Shown: piece after piece, positions 28,795 through 60,880 of the stretch
Layout: every line of letters begins with the position of its first letter
Numbering within the stretch: the stretch's first letter is position 1
Origin: an uncultured Candidatus Saccharibacteria bacterium
GTDB lineage: Bacteria > Patescibacteriota > UBA1384 > JAGGWG01 > CAZAJM01
DNA length: 64,000 nt
Reading direction: 5' to 3'
Assembly: GCA_964485625.1 (NCBI GenBank)
Contig: CAZAJM010000001.1
Coordinates: forward strand, 29,803 to 93,802
Notes under the pieces: model-generated
Told to the model about the DNA's origin: nothing
The model's input: only the letters and a program-made list of their open reading frames with translations
Database searches by the model: none
Position numbers and translations under genes: made by a program

Positions 28795-29337
28795 TTATTC
28801 TAGATCGATACAGACAAGAAACTTGTCAGCGCCAATATGCTCAATTCCCCAAAGATCGTGATCTGTAAAGTCTGATGTCAGCCGGCGGCAATTTACTTCT
28901 GATTCTAGCCGAGCCTTCTTAACCCTAGTTGCTCCAGTGTTGGCAGAATTAGTTCGAGGGCAATATCGGATAGAATTTGCCTGCTGGATTGAAGATAGTA
29001 GAATAGAATTGTCTTTCTGGGTTGGTATTCCATCTTCTAGCTCAGCTTGGCTCATATCAAGTAGTAATTCAAGAGTAAAAGGAGAGTAACAAGGTAGGGA
29101 GACTAAGACGATAAAGGCATATCCACTTTCGTAGTTGCTAGCGCAGATCCAAGGTATGGGTGCTGTTTGCCAAAGATTGCTAAGAAGATCAAAAGCATTA
29201 TTGAATTCATCTGACCTATCAATATTTCTAAATCTCTCAGTTCTGGGTGGATCATGATCAACAAAAATTGCTAATTGAGATGTGGTGTCGATAACTAATT
29301 CGCCAGCGTTACGATCAACTGTTTCTGCTACAGCCAT
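28795..29337 (-). CDS. Hypothetical protein
   Basis: 180-aa ORF downstream of the Nudix gene. No motif recognised. Confidence 0.4.
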   Translation of the reverse strand: MAVAETVDRNAGELVIDTTSQLAIFVDHDPPRTERFRNIDRSDEFNNAFDLLSNLWQTAPIPWICASNYESGYAFIVLVSLPCYSPFTLELLLDMSQAELEDGIPTQKDNSILLSSIQQANSIRYCPRTNSANTGATRVKKARLESEVNCRRLTSDFTDHDLWGIEHIGADKFLVCIDLE

Positions 29338-29412: not shown

Positions 29413-29817
29413 TTAAATTAAAAATAATTTTCTAATTTTTGATAGTGACTTCTTTTGATTGGGATAGCTGAGAGTTTCTTCTAATTCATTAATAGAGCAC
29501 CAGAGATGCTTCTCTTTACCATTGAGATATTTTACATCTTGATTGGGGATTTTAACTAGAAAAGAATATTCAGTAGATATTTTACTGTCACTTTCTAATA
29601 TTACCGTGCTTTTAACTTTAAGATCAGTAACTTTAATCGGTTCTACCTCTATTTCTTCCTTAACCTCCCTAATTGCAGTCTCCTTAGGTCTCTCCCCTTT
29701 TTCTACGTGGCCGGTTAAGACTACTTTGTCTCCAGCCTTTCTATCTAGAACAAAAAATTCTTCTTTGCCGTTCTTCTCTCTATAGACAAACATCATTGCT
29801 TTTTCAACTTTTTTCAT
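29413..29817 (-). CDS. NUDIX hydrolase
   Basis: Nudix box GHVEKGERPKETAIREVKEEIEV (GX5EX7REUXEEXGU). 134 aa. Confidence 0.8.
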   Translation of the reverse strand: MKKVEKAMMFVYREKNGKEEFFVLDRKAGDKVVLTGHVEKGERPKETAIREVKEEIEVEPIKVTDLKVKSTVILESDSKISTEYSFLVKIPNQDVKYLNGKEKHLWCSINELEETLSYPNQKKSLSKIRKLFLI

Positions 29818-30218
29818 CTGATTTTACTTAAGTCGTTGTTAATAACAAGCGGATTCATAGCTTCTACTTCTTCACTATAGTTTAGTCCATTAGGGATAGG
29901 GTTGAGCAAGAATATTTTCTTTTCTAAAACATAGGCAAAAGCCATTTCGATTAAACTATTGCCACCCAAGTAATTATCTATTCCGTTTTTTTCTTTATTG
30001 ATCACCAATATACCATCACAGTTTTTGATTTCTTGGTAGTAGTTTTTTATTACATCAGCATCAATTTTTTCCCATTTATTTTCAACACTTTTCTCTCCCG
30101 AAGCGTAACCTTCAATGTTGGTAGGCAGTATTACTTGGTGACCATCTTCAATAAGTTTTTGCTTAGTATCAACTGCATCTTTAGCAAAAGACATACTACT
30201 GCAAATTACAATTTTCAT
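29814..30218 (-). CDS. Nucleoside 2-deoxyribosyltransferase / DNPH1(Rcl)-like protein (paralogue of 57671-58087)
   Basis: N-terminal Rossmann start MKIVICSSMSF, and a catalytic-Glu region GGNSLIEMAFAYVL (cf. NDT/DNPH1 SGTAFELGFA). 3' end overlaps the Nudix start. About 35% identical to the second copy by eye. Confidence 0.6.
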   Translation of the reverse strand: MKIVICSSMSFAKDAVDTKQKLIEDGHQVILPTNIEGYASGEKSVENKWEKIDADVIKNYYQEIKNCDGILVINKEKNGIDNYLGGNSLIEMAFAYVLEKKIFLLNPIPNGLNYSEEVEAMNPLVINNDLSKIR

Positions 30219-30373
30219 ATTTATAACTAATTAATCGTTGACTACATTTTACCAAAACCATCAATCAAAAAAAAGTCCCGCCTTGGTGGGATGAGGTAAT
30301 TTGGAACAGGGTATAGGGTTGGATTAATGACTCTATACAGGTTTCAAATATAAATAGAGCCAAAGATACAATA

Positions 30374-30889
30374 TTATTGTTCTATCAATGACTCTTTGAA
30401 TGGACATTCGTTATTGCTATCAAAACATTGTCGCTGATCTAAGAAGGAAGAAGCAATTCCTTCAGAGACACATACCCAGTCCGGAAGAGATAATTTAACT
30501 TCCCAGCCTGTAGGCTCCTGGGCTAGAATAATTCCAAACAAAGTTAATTGTTCATTGTCCAATTGCCAGCTGTGATGATAAGCTACTAGTCTTTTCTGTA
30601 TGGAGTTTTTGGGGTAACAGTATTGGTAGGCTGCAATATCTCTTGTTGTATACTGATAAGACTCTCTACTATTTTTATCCAATACGGGGCACACTCTTCT
30701 TTGATCAATAACAACTTCAAATCCTGTGTTTATTGGATCTGGGTTAACCGGAGAAGTAAGAACAGCAAATCTACAATTGATACAGTTAGGGGGCAGATTT
30801 TCTATGAATATAATTGATTCAGTTCCTAGTTTCATCTTGATCCAATCTTGTGTCGGTTCTGGTTTTATAGTTACAACCTCCTTTCTCAT
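30374..30889 (-). CDS. Hypothetical Cys-containing protein
   Basis: 171-aa ORF. No motif recognised. Confidence 0.4.
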   Translation of the reverse strand: MRKEVVTIKPEPTQDWIKMKLGTESIIFIENLPPNCINCRFAVLTSPVNPDPINTGFEVVIDQRRVCPVLDKNSRESYQYTTRDIAAYQYCYPKNSIQKRLVAYHHSWQLDNEQLTLFGIILAQEPTGWEVKLSLPDWVCVSEGIASSFLDQRQCFDSNNECPFKESLIEQ

Positions 30890-31132: not shown

Positions 31133-31492
31133 TTATTCCAATTCAAGTCCGCCTCTAGTTTCTACTCTTTTTAGTAGAAGTACTGCATCAATGTCTACTC
31201 CTTTAACCTCTTCTTTGCCCATTGTTATATTCAATTCAGAAATTGAACTGAATATATCTTCGATAGTAGAATGAAATACTATGCTAATTATTCGAAGTTG
31301 ATCCTCTGTAAGCTCTAAGCCACTATATTTTTCACGACTGAGAATTTCTTCCAGTTTGTCTCTAATCACATCGGGACTATCTAAGACACTATCTGGGTCA
31401 GAGGATCCTTCACTATAACTTGTCAATATCGTTACAGTTAATTCATCTACTAACTCTTGAGGTAATTTAGGAAGGCCTTGTTCGTTGGACAT
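31133..31492 (-). CDS. Hypothetical acidic protein
   Basis: 119-aa ORF, D/E-rich. No motif. Confidence 0.35.
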   Translation of the reverse strand: MSNEQGLPKLPQELVDELTVTILTSYSEGSSDPDSVLDSPDVIRDKLEEILSREKYSGLELTEDQLRIISIVFHSTIEDIFSSISELNITMGKEEVKGVDIDAVLLLKRVETRGGLELE

Positions 31493-49986: not shown

Positions 49987-51156
49987 TTACCTAATTTTAT
50001 CAATCTTTCTTTTGGAGAACTTTTTGGCAAATCGGTGGGCTTCGTCTCTTACTTTCTGAAAAACTCTCTTGTTGCCTTTAATAATCTTTTTTAGATCTTT
50101 GTCTAGGTTTTTAAAGATAAGCTTATCTTTATTATCCCTGCCTTTAGCTAGGCCTACTACGGGTATACCCAAGCTATTTTGTTTGACTATCTGGAAAGCT
50201 TGATTTACCTGGCCTCTACCGCCATCAATTAGAATAATATCAGGAAAGGGCCACTCATTGTGCTTGACTCTTCTAGCTAGAACCTCTTTTAGAGCGCCAA
50301 CATCGTCTTTTTGTTTGGCCTTTTTTATCTTAAAAAGCCGATAATCTTGCTTGCTTGGTTTATTGTTCTCAAAAACTACCATCGAGCCGTATGTTCCTTT
50401 GCCGGCAAAATGAGATATATCATAACCCTCTATTCTCATAAACTCAGTCGCTAGGTGTTCGCCAATACTTTCTCTGCTAATTAGAGCACTGTCTCGGACT
50501 TGTTTTAAACTCTCTATTTTTTCCGGATTTCCTTTTTTCAATCTTTTGTAAAGCCTCTTCTTCTCCCCTCTTAAGAATAGACGCAGGTTTTTAATGTTTC
50601 TTTGGTACTCTTGCTTGCTAACACTATCTGTACAAGCGCCGGGGCAGAGTCCAATCTGGCTATGAAAACAAGGTCGACCTAAATCTGGCTTATTACAATA
50701 GGGGAAAATTTTTCTAAGCATCTCTAGAGCATCTCTGGCAATACTATAGGTTCTATATGGCCCAAAAATGCTAAAGTTTCGGCTAGGATATTTTTTGATA
50801 AACTGCCCTCTAATAATGAAGGGGGCCGGGTAATCTTGGTAATTTAGTTTCGGGATAGCGATATAGGCAAAAGATTTATTGTCTTTACCTTTAACATTAA
50901 AAAATGGCCAATGTTTTTTGATTAGATTAGTTTCCAACATCAACGCTTCCAGAACAGAGTCAGAAACGATATGATCTATTTTGCTAGATTGATTAAGTAG
51001 TTGCTGGACCTTGCTGTTATCGTTGTAGAAATAGCTCATTACCCGGCTACGTAAGTTGCCAGCTTTGCCAATATAAAGGATATCTTCTTTTGATTTAAAG
51101 AGATAGACTCCTGGCTTCTCAGGTAAATTTTTGGCTTGTTCTTTTAAAGTTTTCAT
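49987..51156 (-). CDS. uvrC: Excinuclease ABC subunit C, compact form (GIY-YIG + RNase-H-like endonuclease; no UVR or (HhH)2 region)
   Basis: GIY-YIG N-terminus (GVYLFKSKEDILYIGKAGNLRSRV). C-terminal IDGGRGQV motif (cf. E. coli IDGGKGQL). Only 389 aa. Confidence 0.8.
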   Translation of the reverse strand: MKTLKEQAKNLPEKPGVYLFKSKEDILYIGKAGNLRSRVMSYFYNDNSKVQQLLNQSSKIDHIVSDSVLEALMLETNLIKKHWPFFNVKGKDNKSFAYIAIPKLNYQDYPAPFIIRGQFIKKYPSRNFSIFGPYRTYSIARDALEMLRKIFPYCNKPDLGRPCFHSQIGLCPGACTDSVSKQEYQRNIKNLRLFLRGEKKRLYKRLKKGNPEKIESLKQVRDSALISRESIGEHLATEFMRIEGYDISHFAGKGTYGSMVVFENNKPSKQDYRLFKIKKAKQKDDVGALKEVLARRVKHNEWPFPDIILIDGGRGQVNQAFQIVKQNSLGIPVVGLAKGRDNKDKLIFKNLDKDLKKIIKGNKRVFQKVRDEAHRFAKKFSKRKIDKIR

Positions 51157-51171
51157 ATTCTATCAATATTC

Positions 51172-51241
51172 GGTATTCGGAAGTCCGACCCGCCTGCCAA
51201 AGACTGAAGCTTTGCTGATGGCGGGCAGGCTTCCGAATATT
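51172..51241. repeat. GC-rich miniature repeat, copy D, nested inside the hairpin arms ATTCGGAAG...CTTCCGAAT
   Basis: attcggaagtccgacCCGCCTGCCaaagactgaagctttgctgaTGGCGGGCAGGcttccgaat. The core is the reverse-complement orientation of copy E. Confidence 0.6.
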
Positions 51242-51282
51242 ATTAATGATTTAATAGTAATTTATCAGGTTGTGTACAAAAT

Positions 51283-51309
51283 CGGAAGTCCGACTTCCGA
51301 TTTTAGGAA
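51283..51309. terminator. Perfect 13-bp-stem palindrome AAAATCGGAAGTC-CGA-GACTTCCGATTTT just 3' of uvrA; probable bidirectional intrinsic terminator and core-less relative of repeat D
   Basis: Inverted repeat read directly from the sequence. A/T runs on both sides. Confidence 0.6.
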
Positions 51310-53822
51310 AGTTCTTTTTTTAGGTATTTGGCGGTCTCTGATTCGTCGGTGTATTTGGCCACCTCTTTAGGTTGGCCTTCTACTACAACTTTGCCGCCTG
51401 ATTTGCCGCCATCCGGGCCTAAGTCGATTATCCAGTCGGCATTTTTAATTACATCTAAATTATGCTCAATAACCATGACTGAGTTGCCTCGATCAACCAG
51501 GGACTGAAGGACTTCTAGCAGCATCTCGACATCGTAGTAGTGTAGGCCGACGGTCGGTTCATCTAGCAAGTAGAGAGTATTACGTGAGTTTTTGGTAAGC
51601 TCTCTGGCTAGTTTAAGTCTTTGAGCCTCGCCGCCTGAAAGAGTGGTGGCAGACTGGCCTAGTTCTAAATAGCCCAAACCTACTTCTTTGAGCATTAGCA
51701 GCTTTTCGCTAATAGTTGGAATATCTTTAAAGAAACTGTAGGCCTCATCTATAGTCATCTTAAGTACTTGAGCGATATTCTTAGCTTCATATTTAATCTC
51801 AAGTGTCTCTTTGTTAAACCTCTTGCCTTTACAGATCTCACACTCTACTTCGACAGAAGGGAGAAAGTGAAGCTCAACCTCTTTGTAACCGGCTCCACTA
51901 CAAGCCTGGCATCTGCCCGCGTCGACATTAAAAGAGAATCTAGATTTAGAGTAACCTCTCTCTCGGCTAGCCTCTTGGTTGGCAAAGAGATCTCTAATTG
52001 GAGTGAAGGCACCTGAGTAAGTAGCAGGATTGGAGCGGCTCGATCGGCCGATTGGTGATTGATTGATCTCGACCATATTAACTAGCCTCTCACTGCCCTC
52101 AATTTTGCTCAAATTTGTAAGTTGGGGGTGATTGCCGGGGTCTTTCTTGAAGTACTTTGGTAGGTTCTTGGTAATAGTTTTAAAGAGGGTCGATTTGCCT
52201 GAGCCCGATACCCCAGTCAGAGTAACTAATTTACCTAAAGGCAACTCAATATCAATGTTTTTTAGGTTGTTGGCCGTGGCCCCTTTAAAAATTAGCTTAT
52301 CTTTAACTTTGGTTCTAACCTTATCTGTTTCTATCTCTTTCTTGCCTCTTAGATAGTTGAGAGTTAAAGTGGCTTCTTCTGAGTTTAAAAGCTCTTTGAC
52401 CTTACCACTGCTAACAATCTCGCCGCCCTGCTTGCCCGGGCCCGGGCCTAGATCGACTAGATAATCTGATTGTCTGATCACATTTGGATCATGTTCTACC
52501 ACAATAACGGTGTTGCCCAGATCTCGAATATTTTTTAAAGTGTTCATCAACCTGTTAGTATCACGGGCATGGAGACCGATGGTCGGCTCATCTAGAATGT
52601 AGAGAGCACCAGAGAGTTTAGAGCCCATTTGAGAAGCCAGTCTAATTCTTTGAGCTTCACCGCCAGCCAATGTTCCGGCCTTTCTGTCTAAGTTAAGATA
52701 GTCTAGCCCAACCTCTTCTAGAAAAGTTAGCCGAGAAATAATCTCTTCTAGTAGGTTATAGGCGATTTCAAACTGGGAGTTTTCTAGCTTGTTGGATAAC
52801 TTAGTAAAAAATTCCCCGGCCTGTTTAATAGTTAGGCTAGTAATCTCATCGATATTTTTACCTTCAATTTTAACCGATAGGGCTTCTTTGGAGAGCCGCT
52901 TGCCTTTACAGTCTGGGCAAGGTTTATCTGACCATTTATGAGTAGTGCCTAAACCCTCGCAAGTTGGGCAGGCGCCAAAAGGTGAGTTAAAAGAGAAGAG
53001 TCGGGGCTCAATTTCGGGGAAGGAGAAACCGTCTTTGGGACAGGTTCGTGAGGTTGAGAGCATCAGCTCCTTGGCTAGTTTTCCTCGATGGTCATCGGTG
53101 TAGTAGAGAACATTGACCAAGCCTTCAGAGAGCTCAATTGCCATCTCGACTGCCTCAAATAGTCTGGTCTGATCGACCATGTCGAGCTGATCGACTACAA
53201 TTTCAATAGTGTGGTTTTTGTAGCGTTCTAATCTAATTTGGTCATGTAGGCTGGCAAACTCACCATCGATGCGTGCCTCGTCAAAGCCTTTATTTAAGTG
53301 ATCATATAGTAGTTGATAATAGTCTCCTTTTCTACCTAAAACAACCGGGGAGGTAATGACCATCCGTTTGGCCTTAGACTCCTTGAAGTTTGTTTTTATG
53401 ATATCGACCATTTCGTCTGTAGATAGCTTCTCTATCTCATCGCCACATTCTAAGCAATATGGTTTACCAATCCGGGCATAGAGCACCCTCAAGTAGTCAT
53501 ATATCTCAGTTAAGGTAGCGACATTTGACCTAGGGTTGGAGGACATTGCTTTTTGGTTGATTGCTATAGCTGGGGAGAGGCCACTAATCTCATCTACTTC
53601 GGGTTTTTTCATCTCTCCCAGAAACTGCCGGGCGTAAGGAGAGAGAGATTCAATGTACCTTCTCTGGCCTTCGGCAAAGATAGTATCGAAAGCTAAAGAC
53701 GATTTACCCGAACCGGAGACTCCGGTAACGGCAATAATCTTATTTTTAGGCAGCTTAAGATCGATGTTTTTTAAGTTATGCATCCTAGCCCCTTTTATTG
53801 TAATAGTATCTTTTTCACTCAT
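51303..53822 (-). CDS. uvrA: Excinuclease ABC subunit A
   Basis: Two ABC modules (GVSGSGKSSLAF, GVSGSGKSTL) and zinc-finger CxxC pairs. 839 aa, shorter than the ~940-aa canonical form. Confidence 0.95.
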   Translation of the reverse strand: MSEKDTITIKGARMHNLKNIDLKLPKNKIIAVTGVSGSGKSSLAFDTIFAEGQRRYIESLSPYARQFLGEMKKPEVDEISGLSPAIAINQKAMSSNPRSNVATLTEIYDYLRVLYARIGKPYCLECGDEIEKLSTDEMVDIIKTNFKESKAKRMVITSPVVLGRKGDYYQLLYDHLNKGFDEARIDGEFASLHDQIRLERYKNHTIEIVVDQLDMVDQTRLFEAVEMAIELSEGLVNVLYYTDDHRGKLAKELMLSTSRTCPKDGFSFPEIEPRLFSFNSPFGACPTCEGLGTTHKWSDKPCPDCKGKRLSKEALSVKIEGKNIDEITSLTIKQAGEFFTKLSNKLENSQFEIAYNLLEEIISRLTFLEEVGLDYLNLDRKAGTLAGGEAQRIRLASQMGSKLSGALYILDEPTIGLHARDTNRLMNTLKNIRDLGNTVIVVEHDPNVIRQSDYLVDLGPGPGKQGGEIVSSGKVKELLNSEEATLTLNYLRGKKEIETDKVRTKVKDKLIFKGATANNLKNIDIELPLGKLVTLTGVSGSGKSTLFKTITKNLPKYFKKDPGNHPQLTNLSKIEGSERLVNMVEINQSPIGRSSRSNPATYSGAFTPIRDLFANQEASRERGYSKSRFSFNVDAGRCQACSGAGYKEVELHFLPSVEVECEICKGKRFNKETLEIKYEAKNIAQVLKMTIDEAYSFFKDIPTISEKLLMLKEVGLGYLELGQSATTLSGGEAQRLKLARELTKNSRNTLYLLDEPTVGLHYYDVEMLLEVLQSLVDRGNSVMVIEHNLDVIKNADWIIDLGPDGGKSGGKVVVEGQPKEVAKYTDESETAKYLKKELS

Positions 53823-53833
53823 GATATTTATCT

Positions 53834-53900
53834 AAATCGGAAGGCCTGCCCGCCATTGCCTACGGCTTCAGTCGTTGGCAGGCGGGTTACCTTCAGAATT
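53834..53900. repeat. GC-rich miniature repeat, copy E (CCTGCCCGCCATTGCCTACGGCTTCAGTCGTTGGCAGGCGGG at 53845-53886), flanked by TCGGAAGG/CCTTCAGA partial inverted arms
   Basis: Sits in the 45-nt uvrB-uvrA intergenic spacer. Termini CCTGCCCGCC/GGCAGGCGGG. Confidence 0.6.
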
Positions 53901-55748
53901 GGTTTTTTTAGTTAATTCTTCTAAGTCTATTAAAGGTTTAATATCTTTTTTTATTGTTTTCGGTTTTTTGCCGTGTTTACGGTTGTACTCCAGTTGGATC
54001 TTTCTTCTTCTATTTACCTCATCGATCGCTCTTTTCATAGAACCGGTTACCTTATCAGCATAAAGTATCACTCGGCCTTTAATATTTCTAGCTGCCCGGC
54101 CCATAGTCTGAATAAATGAGGTCTCGGAACGTAGAAAGCCCTCTTGGTCTGCCTCCAGAATTGCGACTAGAGAGACTTCGGGTAAATCTAAGCCCTCTCT
54201 AAGCAGATTAACTCCGACTAAGACATTAAATTGGCCCTCTCTAAACTCAGTTAATATCTCCGAGCGCTCCACTGTGCCTGTATCGGAGTGCATGAACTTA
54301 GATTTAATGCCGTTTTCGTTAAAATAGCTTGAAAGCTCCTCGGCATTTTTCTTAGTAAGAGCGTTGACTAAGACCCGTTCTTCTCTATTTATCACCTTTG
54401 CAATTTCTTTCTCTAGATCATCAATTTGAGAGGTATCGGTCTTTTTATTGTAAACTTTCTTAATCTCAATCTCTGGATCAACTAGATAGGTTGGTCTGAT
54501 TATCTGCTGGGCAATAACAGAAGATTTTGTTCTCTCATAGTCAGATGGTGTAGCTGAAGTATAGATTATTTGGTCAACTCTCTCGTCAAATTCAGAAAAG
54601 TTTAATGGTCTATTGTCTATAGCTGAGGGCAGTCGCCAGCCATGATTGATTAGAGTTTTCTTTCTGGCCTGATCTCCTCGGTACATACCCTTGATTTGAG
54701 GCACGGCAATATGGGACTCATCGATAATAGTAAGAAAGTCCGGTTTGCCGTTTTCGTCTTTGGGGAAATATGATATCAGGGTTTCCGGCGGTTGACCCGG
54801 TAGTTGTCCGGTGAGGTGGCGGGAGTAGTTTTCTATGCCGTTACAGTAGCCAACCGATTTGATCATCGCTAGATCATTCTTAACTACTCTTTCCAGTCTC
54901 TCTGCAGCTAAATATTTATTGTTATCTTTAAAATACTTAAGCCGCTCGTCTAGTTCTTGGCGGATTGTTTTAGCTGCCTCCTCAATATCTTCTTCTTTGC
55001 GAATAAAGTGCTTGGCCGGAAAGATAACCAATTGATCCATCTCCTCAATTGTTGATCTGGTTGTCTTATCAACTACTGAAAGCCTGGCAATTTTCTGGTC
55101 TTTTAGTTCTATTCGATAGGCAAGATCTTTGCTGGGTGGGACAATCTCAATTACATCTCCTCGAGCTCTAAACTTGCCTCGATCCAGATCGAAGCTATTT
55201 CGCTCATATTGCAGTTTGATTAGTTGATTAATGAGATCGCTGCGAGTAATTACATCTCCTAGGTTTAAGTATATTGCTTGTTCAAAATAGTCTGTCGGCA
55301 CCCCCAAGTTATATATACAGGAGACACTGGCAACGACGATCACATCGCTGCGAGTCTGTAAGGCCTCTGTTGCTTCGTGACGAAACTTCTCTATCTCCTC
55401 ATTGATGCTAGCCTCTTTTTGAATGTAGGTATCAGTCGTTGGCAGGTAGGCTTCCGGCTGATAGTAATCGTAGTAGGAGACAAAGAACGCCACCTTGTTA
55501 TCGGGAAAGTAGTTCTTATACTCCCGATAGAGCTGAGCTGCCAGCACTTTGTTTGGCGAGATAACCAATGTAGGTCTATTAATCTTCTCAATTAAATTGG
55601 CAACGCTAAAAGTCTTGCCACTACCGGTTACTCCCAGAAGGGTCATCTTCTCAGCTCCAGATCGGTAGCCTTTTAAAAGCTTTTTAATCGCCTTGGGCTG
55701 GTCTCCGGTCGGAGAGTATTTTGATGAAAGTTTGAATTTATTTGCCAT
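53868..55748 (-). CDS. uvrB: Excinuclease ABC subunit B
   Basis: GVTGSGKT Walker A, helicase motifs, and a C-terminal UVR region. 626 aa. Confidence 0.95.
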   Translation of the reverse strand: MANKFKLSSKYSPTGDQPKAIKKLLKGYRSGAEKMTLLGVTGSGKTFSVANLIEKINRPTLVISPNKVLAAQLYREYKNYFPDNKVAFFVSYYDYYQPEAYLPTTDTYIQKEASINEEIEKFRHEATEALQTRSDVIVVASVSCIYNLGVPTDYFEQAIYLNLGDVITRSDLINQLIKLQYERNSFDLDRGKFRARGDVIEIVPPSKDLAYRIELKDQKIARLSVVDKTTRSTIEEMDQLVIFPAKHFIRKEEDIEEAAKTIRQELDERLKYFKDNNKYLAAERLERVVKNDLAMIKSVGYCNGIENYSRHLTGQLPGQPPETLISYFPKDENGKPDFLTIIDESHIAVPQIKGMYRGDQARKKTLINHGWRLPSAIDNRPLNFSEFDERVDQIIYTSATPSDYERTKSSVIAQQIIRPTYLVDPEIEIKKVYNKKTDTSQIDDLEKEIAKVINREERVLVNALTKKNAEELSSYFNENGIKSKFMHSDTGTVERSEILTEFREGQFNVLVGVNLLREGLDLPEVSLVAILEADQEGFLRSETSFIQTMGRAARNIKGRVILYADKVTGSMKRAIDEVNRRRKIQLEYNRKHGKKPKTIKKDIKPLIDLEELTKKTNSEGNPPAND

Positions 55749-56536: not shown

Positions 56537-57133
56537 TTATGAGTCTTGATCTGGGTTAATATATTCTGGATTGACGGCCACAAACTTAACTGGCTTGCAA
56601 TCTTGTCTAACCATCTTAGCAACCCATTCTTGTTCGTTGAATTCTTCCCCCAAACTACATGTCTCTATAACTCCAAAAATTTCCAAGCCTTCTTTTTGTA
56701 TGGGATAACAGTTCATAATAACATTTCTATCTGAGTTTCCATCTCTATGAATTGCTGGCGATCTATTTGACGCAGAGTTAGCGGTGACTGTGGTTATATT
56801 AGGCAATGAATCCCATCTGGAAACGATTGACAACATTTCTTTATCCCTTGAATATAGATAAATGTGAGTGCCATTGAATGGATGAGCTGAACTAATAGCC
56901 CAATCTAAGGATTTAAATAAGTAAGTTTTAGTCCCATCATAATCAATAGTAATAGCGTGTCGTCCAGTAGGCAAGCCATTTTCATCTTCCTCGCTTACTC
57001 CATCAATTATTCTTATTGGGCCTCCCATGCTCGGTGCGTGTTCTAACGAATCAAAATCAATCTCATCTTCAGGTGAGGCAGGAGTAAATAGAAATATTAG
57101 TCTTTGAAATCTAAACACATCTTGGTTTTCCAT
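56537..57133 (-). CDS. Hypothetical protein
   Basis: 198-aa ORF. No motif. Confidence 0.4.
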   Translation of the reverse strand: MENQDVFRFQRLIFLFTPASPEDEIDFDSLEHAPSMGGPIRIIDGVSEEDENGLPTGRHAITIDYDGTKTYLFKSLDWAISSAHPFNGTHIYLYSRDKEMLSIVSRWDSLPNITTVTANSASNRSPAIHRDGNSDRNVIMNCYPIQKEGLEIFGVIETCSLGEEFNEQEWVAKMVRQDCKPVKFVAVNPEYINPDQDS

Positions 57134-57207: not shown

Positions 57208-57663
57208 TTAGATCAAATATTTTTCAAAATCCTTAACTATCGGTGCTTTCGTCTTGTAGCCACTATCAACAATTTTGAATCCTTCCCTCTCTAAAAGTTT
57301 AATCTGCTTTGAAGGCTGGCCCATATATTTTTCGTAGACCTGGCCATCAGGTTTTATCACCCTCCAGTAGGGGGTTAGGTTCTTTCTGCCTTCTTCTCTG
57401 TCCTCTTCGGTTTTGTTGGCAGCAATACCGATAAATATACCTGTAGTTAGTTGGCAGGTAAAATCTACTTGGTGTTTCTTGTTAAGTTTTTCCACGATCT
57501 GTTTGGTAGTAATTAGCTTACCTTTAGGAACTTTACTGATAATTTGAGATATCTCCATCGGGCAAGAGATATACATCAGGCCTCTGTCTGTCTCTTTCTT
57601 GCTCATAAAACCTTCTTTTTCTTCACTAAATTTTTTTTGCCAAGACTTTTTTGTTTTAGTCAT
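57208..57663 (-). CDS. Alkyltransferase-like (ATL) protein: MGMT DNA-binding fold without the active-site Cys
   Basis: ISKVPKGKLITTKQIVEKL HTH region and TPYWRVI in place of the MGMT PCHRV motif (Cys replaced by an aromatic residue, as in ATL PWHRV). 151 aa. Confidence 0.55.
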   Translation of the reverse strand: MTKTKKSWQKKFSEEKEGFMSKKETDRGLMYISCPMEISQIISKVPKGKLITTKQIVEKLNKKHQVDFTCQLTTGIFIGIAANKTEEDREEGRKNLTPYWRVIKPDGQVYEKYMGQPSKQIKLLEREGFKIVDSGYKTKAPIVKDFEKYLI

Positions 57664-57670
57664 TTTTTAA

Positions 57671-58087
57671 TTATTTAGGTATTTTCCCCAAATCTCCATT
57701 AATTACTTTTGGCTTCATGGCAATAATCTCGGTTCTATACAACTCATTATTTGGAACTGGATTTAGGAGGTAAATTTTTTGATCTAATATGTGGGCAAAG
57801 CCCATCTCCAAGAAAGTATTGCCACCGATATAGTTTTTAGTTCCATTTTTATCCCAATTACAGACCAAAACCGCATCGGTACCCTGCATCTGTTGCCAGA
57901 AAGACCGGATGGCATCTTTGTTGTATTTCTGTTCTAATTTGATCCGCTCTTTATCCTCAGGGCTCTTACCGGCGATGTTTTTAGCAAGCTTTGTAATAAA
58001 AGCCTCATGCCCCAACCTGTTAAGTTGGTCTTTGCTCTTAATCATCTCATCAGTAAAATTCATTGAACCAATTACTCCAATTCTCAT
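57671..58087 (-). CDS. Nucleoside 2-deoxyribosyltransferase / DNPH1(Rcl)-like protein (paralogue of 29814-30218)
   Basis: MRIGVIGSMNF and GGNTFLEMGFAHILDQKIYLLNP align with MKIVICSSMSF and GGNSLIEMAFAYVLEKKIFLLNP of the first copy. 8 nt upstream of the ATL gene. Confidence 0.6.
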   Translation of the reverse strand: MRIGVIGSMNFTDEMIKSKDQLNRLGHEAFITKLAKNIAGKSPEDKERIKLEQKYNKDAIRSFWQQMQGTDAVLVCNWDKNGTKNYIGGNTFLEMGFAHILDQKIYLLNPVPNNELYRTEIIAMKPKVINGDLGKIPK

Positions 58088-58231
58088 GGTAGCTTAATTT
58101 TAAGAATTAACTAGAAAAAAGGCAAATTAATAATTGTCTAATATTGACTAAGGTGTAACACTGTGATATTATGTAACCACTTTGTACCTATCGGTTGGTA
58201 GAACCAAAAAACTGCCAGGAGGTAGTCGACT

Positions 58232-59068
58232 ATGTCTGAACAGACAAAAGTCGTTGTCCTCAACGAGGCCCCCCATAATAGGATAGAGAAGGGCCTTGCC
58301 TGCTTGGCCAATGCTGGGGTAACCAGTGACCATTGGCAGCAGGCCACCATCGATGACCCGATCGCCCGAAGGTGTGTCGCCTCAGCTCTCAAGGGCGAGG
58401 TAGCTACTCCAATCACTCAAGACGATTGGTTGGAGCGTGAGGCTGAGATCCTCAGCCAGATCTGCGATAGTGGGAAGGGCTCAGGCATGTTCAGTGTCGA
58501 GTCCCTCCGTCCCGCACTGAACCGGGCAGTTGAGGAATGGGGAGAACCCACTGAGCACTGGCGGGTAATCCCCGGTGCCTACACCCTCCCCGACTTGTTC
58601 GAGATTCTCTACCGCTTGGAAGACAAGTGGCAGGAGGATCACAGCGGCAAGAGCTTCCTCTGCGGGAGGCGCAAAGAGGAGTGGTGGCGGACCAGTGACA
58701 CGTACCAGCCTATCGCCACTGAGCTTGGTGTCATGGTCTGCAACCTCGAGACCTGCGCTAACCCGACTGATCTGGACGGTGCCCCCTACTACCTCAACCG
58801 TGAGGAGCAGGAGGCCTGGGTCAAGACCCAGGGAGCGGAGGAAATGATGAGCGCTGAAGAGGTTATCTACCTCTTCATCCGCTCTATTATGGGGCTAAGC
58901 CGCCCTCTCTGGCCTGCCGGTACCATGCGCTGCCGAAACAACACCGGTTCGGGCGGCTCGCTCAGCGTCTATTGGCACGCGCGCGATGGCTTGAGCGTCA
59001 GCGGCTGGCACGATGTTGGTCCGAGTTGGTGCATCGGTGCTCTCCCCCGGAAGTTGGTTTTGGCCTAG
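58232..59068 (+). CDS. DGR variable (target) protein with a C-terminal VR in a CLec/FGE-like fold; strongly GC-rich gene
   Basis: The C-terminal ~36 codons are the VR. The whole ORF is about 55-58% GC against ~38% flanks. GGAGG RBS. No signal peptide or TM. The VR-encoded tail ...GSGGSLSVYWHARDGLSVSGWHDVGPSWCIGALPRK. Confidence 0.8.
   Translation: MSEQTKVVVLNEAPHNRIEKGLACLANAGVTSDHWQQATIDDPIARRCVASALKGEVATPITQDDWLEREAEILSQICDSGKGSGMFSVESLRPALNRAVEEWGEPTEHWRVIPGAYTLPDLFEILYRLEDKWQEDHSGKSFLCGRRKEEWWRTSDTYQPIATELGVMVCNLETCANPTDLDGAPYYLNREEQEAWVKTQGAEEMMSAEEVIYLFIRSIMGLSRPLWPAGTMRCRNNTGSGGSLSVYWHARDGLSVSGWHDVGPSWCIGALPRKLVLA
58945..59053 (+). repeat. DGR variable repeat (VR), 109 nt
   Basis: Identical to the TR at 59417-59525 at all 92 non-mismatched positions. 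All 17 mismatches fall where the TR has A (VR has G/C/T). A GC palindrome GGCCTAGGCC (59062-59071) lies immediately 3'. Confidence 0.85.
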
Positions 59069-59416
59069 GCCCTTGGGGTCTGGGATCTATTGGGTGTTAG
59101 CTCTTGGTTTTTCCGCTCTGCGGATCACCTTGGACTAACGCCCATCTTTTTTTAAATAAAAATATGGTAGAATATAGTTAAGATAGCAATGAATTGGAGT
59201 TTACGGATTCCAATCGCTATCTTCCTGATCTCTTGGAGACAGAGTCCTTAATTTGAATCTGAATTAAGGGGAGTTTTTAAAAAGGGATTAGAGACTTCTT
59301 ACTGTCTGTTTGGCAGGGTTTTGGTAGCTTGAATACTTGCCACATAAAATACAGGGAGGAGTAGCCTTATTTGAGGTCTCAACTCCTGGTGGTTGCAGAG
59401 GACAGATAGTAAATTA

Positions 59417-59525
59417 CGGTTCGGGCAACTCGCTCAACGTCAATTGGAACGCGAACGATGGCTTGAACGTCAACAACTGGCACGATGATGATCCGAATTG
59501 GAACATCGGTGCTCTCCCCCGGAAG
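59417..59525 (+). repeat. DGR template repeat (TR), 109 nt, rich in AAC codons
   Basis: cggttcgggcAActcgctcaAcgtcAattggAacgcgAAcgatggcttgaAcgtcaAcAActggcacgatgAtgAtccgaAttggAAcatcggtgctctcccccggaag. Capitals mark TR adenines substituted in the VR. Confidence 0.85.
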
Positions 59526-59544
59526 TCTCTATTTCTTTTGGAAT

Positions 59545-59892
59545 TTATCTGACAGACCTTATCCAACCTCCCAACATTTTGCCAATCTCTTGGAGCATTT
59601 CTTCCAGAGCTAAATATCTTTTAGTCGGAATTGCCTTAATTTCCTCTCCCATTCTAAGAAGAACTTTTAAAAGATCTAATTTAATACTGGCTTTTTTCAA
59701 GTATTTTAACTTTGTTTCTCTATGAGAATTGTTGCTAGCAGTAATTAAGTATTCCATAATCTCTAATGTAATGTCATCTGTTTTTTGCCCTAGGGTGTAT
59801 TTATTTCTTTTTGGCATTTTTTCAACTACAAACATTAATTCTCGATAGAAATTGTAAGTTTTGGTAACAATAGGAGCTTCTTGATTGCTCAT
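59545..59892 (-). CDS. avd: DGR accessory variability determinant (Avd), four-helix-bundle family, encoded antisense between TR and RT
   Basis: 115 aa. Resembles 23S-rRNA-IVS/Avd four-helix-bundle proteins (YTLGQKTDD..., KLDLLKVLLRMGEEIKAI, C-terminus EIGKMLGGWIRSVR cf. ...VAKMLSGLIRSR). Its ATG overlaps the RT ATG in the palindrome CATG at 59890-59893. Confidence 0.65.
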   Translation of the reverse strand: MSNQEAPIVTKTYNFYRELMFVVEKMPKRNKYTLGQKTDDITLEIMEYLITASNNSHRETKLKYLKKASIKLDLLKVLLRMGEEIKAIPTKRYLALEEMLQEIGKMLGGWIRSVR

Positions 59893-60880
59893 GGCTAAAC
59901 TAATTAATGATATTACTAGTATTGAAAACTTGTTTTTAAGCTGGAAAAATTTTAGAAAAGGCAAACGCCATAAACCGGATGTGCAGCAGTTCGAACGGTA
60001 CCTTGAAGATAATCTATTCCAACTTCGTCAAGAGTTTAAAACGGGCAGCTACAGACATGGTAATTATATCAGCTTCAATATTACTGACCCAAAATCAAGA
60101 TTGATTCACAAGGCTAAAGTTAGGGATCGAGTAGTACATCACGGAGTATACCGTCAACTTTATCCAATCTTTGATAAAGGCTTTATTTTTGACAGCTACT
60201 CTTGTAGAAATAACAAAGGAACTCATAGGGCGATAAAGAGGTTAAGAAAATTTACTATCAAGGTATCCAAAAACAATATAAGAGTCTGTTGGGCTTTGAA
60301 GCTTGATGTTAAAAAGTTTTTTAATAGTGTAGATCAGCAAATTCTGTTAAAGCTTATCTCTAAGAAAATTAAAGACAGAAAAGCTCTAAGTTTAATTGAT
60401 GAAATAATCGGTAGTTTTTCTGTGGATAAAAAATCTCAGAGAGAGAGAGAGAGAGAGTTAAGGGGTCTGCCGATTGGCAATTTGACTTCTCAACTTTTTG
60501 CAAATATCTACCTAAATCCCTTGGATCAGTTTGTAAAGCATGAGTTAAAAGAAAAATATTATCTTCGTTACTGTGATGACTTTGTTATTCTTAGTAAAGA
60601 CAGAAAGCATCTGATTAAGCGTATTTTTAAGATCGAGAAGTTTTTAAGCAAGAAATTAAAATTAAATTTACATCCTGATAAAATAATTCTAACAAAACTA
60701 AAACAGGGCATAGACTTTTTAGGTTACGTTGTTTTGCCACATTCAATTGTTCTGCGAACTAAAACTAAAAAAAGGATGTTAAATATGATTAACGAGAGTA
60801 ACAAAGACTCGTACTTAGGACTGCTCAAGCATTGTGATAGTTATAAATTGAAACAAAGAATAAGAAGTATTTTTGATTGA
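59891..60880 (+). CDS. DGR reverse transcriptase
   Basis: RT motifs: GLPIGNLTSQLFANIYL (the DGR-specific IGxxxSQ replacing group-II QGxxSP) and YLRYCDDFVIL (YxDD). About 330 aa, the size typical of DGR RTs. The track ORF starts at a TTG at 59885. Confidence 0.9.
   Translation: MAKLINDITSIENLFLSWKNFRKGKRHKPDVQQFERYLEDNLFQLRQEFKTGSYRHGNYISFNITDPKSRLIHKAKVRDRVVHHGVYRQLYPIFDKGFIFDSYSCRNNKGTHRAIKRLRKFTIKVSKNNIRVCWALKLDVKKFFNSVDQQILLKLISKKIKDRKALSLIDEIIGSFSVDKKSQRERERELRGLPIGNLTSQLFANIYLNPLDQFVKHELKEKYYLRYCDDFVILSKDRKHLIKRIFKIEKFLSKKLKLNLHPDKIILTKLKQGIDFLGYVVLPHSIVLRTKTKKRMLNMINESNKDSYLGLLKHCDSYKLKQRIRSIFD

Follow-up and report, generated by a model that had tools for sequence, protein, structure and literature searches.

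The window analysed here, a 64,000-nucleotide (nt) stretch of the genome of an uncultured Candidatus Saccharibacteria bacterium, carries two paralogous genes, copy 1 (positions 29814-30218, minus strand, an open reading frame (ORF) of 134 amino acids (aa)) and copy 2 (57671-58087, minus strand, an ORF of 138 aa). Both encode members of a divergent branch of the nucleoside 2'-deoxyribosyltransferase (NDT) superfamily (PF05014), a clade for which Pfam holds no annotation. Relatives of the two proteins are recurrently fused to nucleotide phosphohydrolases. We tentatively propose, at somewhat less than an even chance, that the family consists of retaining N-glycosidases acting on nucleoside monophosphates (NMPs) supplied by a coupled or fused phosphohydrolase, with a base and (deoxy)ribose-5-phosphate as products and with ribose possibly tolerated. 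The general view is that symbiotic bacteria and archaea of ultra-small size depend on nucleotides that they scavenge; little is known of the ways in which they get rid of modified and damaged nucleotides or recycle them.

The two genes are paralogues, as a first-pass annotation of the window had stated, since their products align end to end with 40% identity (E=2e-37), a similarity far above chance. The family is assigned to the NDT superfamily because of structure comparison and of PF05014 matches among the relatives; hhalign alignments add to this link, which does not come from direct scans of copies 1 and 2, both of which have diverged too far to be found by themselves. An AlphaFold2 model built from 54 homologues (pLDDT 93.3, pTM 0.88) shows the paralogues adopting the Rossmann-like alpha/beta fold of NDTs. 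The best matches of the model in structure comparison are true transferases (7o62, 6evs, 7m5h, 8rh3, 1s2d and 1f8x). The next ranks are held by the TIR domain of SARM1 (11.9), more NDTs, YtoQ (11.1), MilB (10.8) and Rcl/DNPH1 (10.4); LOG-like proteins stand lower (8.5-9.2). Of 107 diverse family members, 75 match PF05014 at E<=0.05 (best 2.3e-07), the scores among the matches listed being 16.9-27.7 bits, under the gathering cut-off of 28.8 bits. In multidomain members these matches fall on the NDT-like family domain itself. PF15891 is matched by 2 of the 107, and no further family recurs. Scans of copies 1 and 2 against NCBIfam, PADLOC and PHROG gave nothing relevant, even at E<=1. Several relatives (P0003, P0009, P0052, P0058 and P0073) are labelled 'predicted RNA-binding protein with PUA domain' by JGI, which looks like a propagated misannotation, the fold and profile analyses giving PUA no support.

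The family is large. An exhaustive profile search recovered 1,570 clusters at 50% identity. The clade is characteristic of Patescibacteria and of DPANN archaea, to which its named sources belong (among the latter Woesearchaeota, Pacearchaeota, Micrarchaeota and Aenigmatarchaeota). A copy 1 subfamily of about 133 aa accounts for 228 matches and a larger copy 2 subfamily of about 137 aa for 1,427. As copies 1 and 2 fall in two old subfamilies, their duplication is ancient. It was confined to the NDT-like gene: the uncharacterised ORFs that flank the two pairs are mutually unrelated, and a larger segmental duplication was rejected on this ground. Scans of IMG/VR for viral relatives of the family found none, which led us to reject a viral origin as well. 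Tandem fusions of two family domains (P0242, P0243 and P0247) hint at dimerisation, which in the NDT superfamily lets each subunit complete the active site of its partner. A heterodimer of copy 1 and copy 2 finds no support in them, since they do not join one copy-1-type to one copy-2-type domain in a sample that is biased towards copy 1. In one further protein, P0361 (628 aa), the NDT-like domain follows a region resembling a class II aminoacyl-tRNA synthetase, an architecture that could be a gene-call artefact.

Residue conservation was scored over 107 diverse family representatives, in copy 1 numbering. N74 and E117 are found in all of them (each 107/107), E91 in 106, G85 in 104, Y83 in 102 and K77 in 100; S8 is present in 94 of 98. 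Position 55 is Asp in 75 and Asn in 19 of the 107 (D or N in 94). Copy 1 has all of these, with D55, and E91 as its predicted nucleophile. In the NDT superfamily, the catalytic triad is Tyr/Asp (or Asn)/Glu, and the Glu forms a covalent sugar-enzyme intermediate; the residue roles used here are those of PMC10603095 and PMC12884076. Reference sequences of human DNPH1 and of the L. leichmannii NDT (LlNDT) were verified against the PDB and aligned to the family profile with hhalign. In these alignments E91 coincides with DNPH1 E104 and LlNDT E98, as befits the catalytic Glu that the first-pass annotation had pointed out. The equivalent residue of copy 2 is E94, in GGNTFLEMGFAH, which is invariant in alignment A4. 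The alignments thus show the putative nucleophile Glu, borne by the helix after beta3, kept in both copies, and the general acid (Asp or Asn 55) is probably kept too. C6-G7-S8 aligns with DNPH1 C26-G27-S28, S8 being conserved in this CGS loop, and Gly85-Gly86 lies six residues ahead of the catalytic Glu. The beta3-alpha3 loop bears an insertion of 6-7 residues in which K77, Y83 and G85 are conserved. At the position of Gly85-Gly86, LlNDT has Asp92, a residue read from its sequence and presumably the one that binds the 5'-OH. At the site that binds the 5'-OH in transferases, hydrolases of the superfamily carry small residues, which leaves room for a 5'-phosphate (PMC12884076). In MilB, a Phe takes the place of the triad Tyr and ribose is accepted (PMC10603095; PMC12884076).

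The stop codon of copy 1 and the start codon of the next gene share an ATGA. Through this 4-nt overlap the downstream gene (29413-29817, minus strand, 134 aa), which encodes a Nudix hydrolase, is predicted to be translationally coupled to copy 1. The first-pass annotation had noted the overlap and expected the PF00293 match, which scores 41.9 bits, the cut-off being 21.1. The Nudix box has the form G37-x5-E-x7-REVKEEIEV, a Glu taking the place of the last Gly, and reads GHVEKGERPKETAIREVKEEIEV. Its closest solved relatives are Ap4A hydrolases (1kt9, E=5.6e-07), and scores with the NCBIfam equivalogs of the 8-oxo-dGTPase MutT, TIGR00586 and NF008044, stay far under the cut-offs (28.8 vs 97.9 and 28.6 vs 148 bits, respectively). 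By sequence, then, this Nudix protein resembles Ap4A hydrolases more than MutT.

Among 80 loci of species-representative genomes, a Nudix gene is adjacent or fused to the family gene in 8 and lies at <=4 kb in 17. Family neighbourhoods are highly variable and of a housekeeping type, with Nudix, HD, CYTH, Ham1, Maf and NTPase_I-T as recurrent neighbours. Fusions were counted over the 150 best cluster representatives, apart from one Nudix fusion that comes from a genome locus. NTPase_I-T/DUF84 is fused to the family domain in 7 proteins. Nudix fusions are found in P0258 and P0297, and the further one in a Woesearchaeota genome (L009, 4001-4816). MazG is the partner in P0242 and P0312 and Maf in P0360; an architecture of two family domains followed by MazG was seen once. 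P0274 is also among the proteins with NDT-like-domain fusions. Nudix, MazG, Maf and NTPase_I-T are all house-cleaning nucleotide phosphohydrolases, and these recurrent fusions support a predicted functional link between the family and NTP phosphohydrolases (NTP, nucleoside triphosphate).

In the proposed scheme a phosphohydrolase (Nudix, MazG, Maf or NTPase_I-T) would make a nucleoside 5'-monophosphate from an NTP or a dinucleotide. For copy 1 this upstream enzyme would be the translationally coupled Nudix protein, and in other genomes the fused Nudix, MazG, Maf or NTPase_I-T. The paralogue, as a retaining N-glycosidase, would then cut the base from the NMP or deoxy-NMP (dNMP), leaving ribose- or deoxyribose-5-phosphate. 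In DNPH1 and NDTs the triad Tyr excludes a 2'-OH; with V, T or A in its place, the family may take ribonucleotides too, as MilB does with its Phe. In organisms that live by scavenging nucleotides, the two steps would serve to clear away or reuse those that are surplus or non-canonical. That they amount to a lineage-wide, so far unannotated two-step route for disposal or scavenging, in which the Tyr-less N-glycosidase takes both ribo- and deoxyribo-NMPs, seems to us rather doubtful. If it were so, host-derived or non-canonical nucleotides would be turned into base and (deoxy)ribose-5-phosphate, sometimes by activities residing on one fused polypeptide, and Patescibacteria and DPANN would have two specialised paralogues per genome.

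A number of observations weigh against N-glycosidase action on NMPs. Neither copy matches PF05014 or PF15891 in the Pfam scan even at E<=1; the NDT/DNPH1 fold called in the first-pass annotation stands, through the structure comparison and the PF05014 matches of the relatives, but the direct match that it expected does not. Searches of the PDB with profile hidden Markov models of 54- and 107-sequence alignments returned no NDT or DNPH1 match. The hhalign E-values, of ~0.02-0.04, are statistically weak and the alignments suggestive only. In particular, the triad Asp maps ambiguously, DNPH1 D80 to D55 but LlNDT D72 to position 60, a site of His or Tyr. Position 4, aligned at low confidence with the triad Tyr of DNPH1 (Y24), is V, T or A (V32/T26/A21), and position 5, aligned at similarly low confidence with LlNDT Y7, is I, L or V. 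Judged from these alignments, the triad Tyr that deoxy-specific DNPH1 and NDT enzymes have at the end of beta1 is absent from the family. The 5'-phosphate site of human DNPH1 consists of Ser98 and Ser128'; the helical extension with the phosphate-binding Ser128 has no counterpart, and the invariant N74 and E117 could instead bind the 5'-OH, which would favour nucleoside substrates. It must also be noted that in a gene-rank control over 160 loci, Nudix genes make up 13 of 293 adjacent genes vs 13 of 515 at rank >=3 (4.4% vs 2.5%), so that the enrichment over the local background is not significant (Fisher p=0.10). A DNPH1-like gene with a Nudix gene is therefore not the conserved two-gene module that had been suggested. 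A functional link to NTP phosphohydrolases is supported by the recurrent fusions, and because of the gene-rank control we base it on these and not on neighbourhood.

The main rival explanation casts the paralogues as salvage nucleoside 2'-deoxyribosyltransferases that swap bases between (deoxy)nucleosides, on the model of lactobacilli without de novo synthesis, the two copies differing in base specificity, as do the purine-specific and the general class of NDTs. In its favour, true transferases head the structural ranking, PF05014 is the sole recurrent Pfam link, the hosts (Patescibacteria and DPANN) are scavengers, two old subfamilies exist, and hydroxyls of the sugar could be bound by N74, N87 and E117, which are polar and invariant. 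We nevertheless consider it unlikely. The triad Tyr, which according to the DmtZ paper excludes ribosylated bases (PMC12884076), is absent; Gly85-Gly86, at the position of LlNDT Asp92, is small, as in the hydrolases that accommodate a 5'-phosphate (PMC12884076); and the products of the fusion partners are mono- or diphosphates of nucleosides rather than nucleosides. A non-catalytic, nucleotide-binding sensor of the NDT/LOG/SLOG fold, which would modulate the fused or adjacent phosphohydrolase, is harder still to reconcile with a near-invariant nucleophile Glu and a strongly conserved Asp/Asn, typical of the active enzymes of the superfamily, and we regard it as improbable. The first-pass annotation had also raised a role as sensor or effector of a defence pathway. 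In such a system a TIR/SLOG-like enzyme would act on NAD+ or a nucleotide signal, while the Nudix protein would degrade the signal or process ADP-ribose. We consider this highly unlikely. The paralogues have no PADLOC or PHROG match, and in PADLOC only the Nudix protein has one, to the candidate system PDC-S07, the protein encoded next to copy 2 (see below) having none. The sequence link goes to PF05014 and not to TIR or SLOG families. Moreover, the family is very widespread, mostly as a stand-alone protein of ~135 aa among housekeeping genes in variable neighbourhoods; effector, sensor or STING/SAVED partners were not seen, nor were copies found in IMG/VR.

A last explanation, proposed in the first-pass annotation, sees two damage-repair modules in the window, copy 1 with a MutT-like sanitiser and copy 2 with an alkyltransferase-like protein (ATL) that flags O6-alkylguanine for UvrABC in nucleotide excision repair (NER). 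The gene in question (57208-57663, minus strand, 151 aa) lies downstream of copy 2. The junction is TAA-ttaaaaa-ATG; the closeness first noted is thus real, with a spacer of 7 and not 8 nt, and such spacing suggests co-transcription. The uvrC, uvrA and uvrB genes are indeed present nearby (49987-55748), the uvrB end lying 1.46 kb from the ATL-like gene and 1.9 kb from copy 2. The best structural and profile matches of the ATL-like protein are 2kif/2kim and Atl1 (3gva), which also fits a repair role. However, the interval between the pair and uvrB contains an unrelated ORF of 198 aa as well as ~0.8 kb without coding sequence, and the Nudix protein scores far under the MutT cut-off. The proposed pairing of a DNPH1-like gene with an ATL gene does not recur either: PF01035 is found as a neighbour in only one of 160 NDT-like family loci, leaving 159 without it, and none of the 7 distinct contexts of ATL-like relatives holds an NDT-like gene. 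In the single locus, L071, the arrangement is convergent. A 99-aa protein with a canonical PF01035 score (E=9.3e-30; L071:4001-4706) is encoded there on the opposite strand, and its gene overlaps the 3' end of the NDT-like gene by a few nucleotides. The ATL-like gene beside copy 2 is thus most likely a genome-specific, incidental neighbour and not a functional partner. Together with the residues described next, this makes the repair modules highly unlikely, and the NMP N-glycosidase remains the reading that we prefer.

The ATL-like protein is divergent. The expected PF01035 match is there, at exactly the gathering score (27.0 bits), and the reported TPYWRVI can be read as P98-Y-W-R-V, PYWRV replacing the PCHRV of MGMT. 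The protein has the fold of the MGMT C-terminal domain. Y99, present in 36 of 39 members, aligns with the Trp of PWFRV (2kif) and of PWHRV (Atl1) and with MGMT C145, so that the active-site Cys is replaced by a non-nucleophilic residue. T53, A82 (38/39) and K93 stand at the positions of MGMT Y114, R128 and N137, in a mapping that is approximate (hhalign E 0.028). We take MGMT R128 and Y114 to correspond to Atl1 R39 and Y25, respectively, and the MGMT-family protein in 2kif/2kim to be the Vibrio ATL. A direct reading of the 39-member alignment found no conserved Arg in residues 57-95. By this comparison the ATL-like protein is without the Arg finger and the lesion-pocket Tyr, and for that reason the claim that it flags O6-alkylguanine for UvrABC is unsupported. 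Its recognition-helix region contains an insertion of ~15 residues (FTCPLTTGIF), there are extra segments at both termini, and the N-terminal half (residues 14-70) matches the ribosomal protein eS25 in the PDB (5xyi_Z, E=5.5e-04). The family is small, with 40 matches. The gene of one relative (L161:2336-4301) overlaps a thiE-like gene on one side and a thiD-like gene on the other, by 4 nt each. It appears likely that the ATL-like protein is not a canonical ATL and that its link with NER is accidental, which corrects two likely misreadings.

In public annotation both paralogues begin at Met9, giving proteins of 126 and 130 aa. The longer ORFs are the better models because family members share a conserved N-terminal strand, MKIxICGS. 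Many relatives are also called from Met9 and lose this beta1 strand; the family is systematically N-terminally truncated in databases. Promoter-like hexamers (TTGCCT-17-TAAAAT, 58097-58125, minus strand) lie directly upstream of copy 2 and match the consensus only. The transcription-signal scan called no terminator near copy 1, and its promoter matches are at the consensus level only. A short hairpin with a T-run upstream of copy 1 (~30263-30290) was not called by the scan, and we make no claim for it. Around the two pairs, and on their strand, lie four small ORFs of 119-198 aa (28795-29337, 30374-30889, 31133-31492 and 56537-57133), for which neither Pfam matches nor mutual similarity were found. 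A 180-aa ORF lies ~75 nt downstream of the Nudix gene and a 198-aa ORF ~75 nt downstream of the ATL-like gene, and each may be co-transcribed with the gene that precedes it.

A diversity-generating retroelement adjoins copy 2 (58232-60880). Its target gene (58232-59068, plus strand) includes the variable repeat (~58945-59054). The template repeat (~59417-59526) is identical to it at 94 of 110 nt, all 16 mismatches falling at template adenines. The bAvd gene (59545-59964, minus strand, PF22296) is followed by that for the reverse transcriptase (59885-60880, plus strand, PF00078); as listed, these two ORFs overlap in opposite orientation.

For the most part, the first-pass annotation proves right in its fold call and in its broad notion of nucleotide clean-up. 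Its more specific claim of two-gene modules finds partial support for Nudix and none for the ATL. Both the chemistry predicted here and the two-step logic have precedents in DNPH1 and in DmtZ-DutZ. What appears to be new is the clade and its fusions, of which literature searches found no description: some 1,570 clusters with a conserved nucleophile, an altered triad and fusions to four families of house-cleaning phosphohydrolases. They give a testable hypothesis, in which an NTP is converted to an NMP and this to base and sugar phosphate.

Comparison with known systems brings out how the family differs from each. In DNPH1/Rcl (4p5e, 2khz), the residue Tyr24 corresponds to V, T or A in the family, and the Ser128 extension has no counterpart there; the family adds the beta3-alpha3 insertion (K77, Y83, G85) and the invariant N74 and E117, and it has no detectable sequence-profile match to the PDB. 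Compared with NDTs proper (PF05014; 7o62, 6evs, 1f8x), family members match the profile under its gathering score, and copies 1 and 2 not at all. They are without the Tyr, they have Gly where LlNDT has Asp92, and their fusion partners point to phosphorylated substrates. The CMP and hydroxymethyl-CMP N-glycosidases MilB and BcmB (4ohr) belong to antibiotic biosynthesis and keep an aromatic residue where the family has a small aliphatic one or Thr. As to the neighbour of copy 2, it departs from Atl1 (3gva) and 2kif/2kim by its T53, A82 and K93 as well as by the insertion, the terminal segments and the eS25-like N-terminal half.

An experimental precedent of recent date is DmtZ-DutZ. DmtZ is an NDT-family dAMP hydrolase encoded adjacent or fused to the dNTPase DutZ in Z-genome phages (PMC12884076). 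Unlike the present family, DmtZ keeps the triad Tyr (Tyr6), is phage-borne and is specific for dAMP, whereas the hosts here are cellular Patescibacteria and DPANN, with no viral copies found in IMG/VR. DutZ is dUTPase-like, whereas the partners of the family are Nudix, MazG, Maf and NTPase_I-T. On the other hand, DmtZ has Asn for the triad Asp, as do 19 of the 107 family members. An NDT-family dNMP N-hydrolase stands there beside, or is fused to, a dNTP pyrophosphatase, which is the same two-step logic that we propose for the family.

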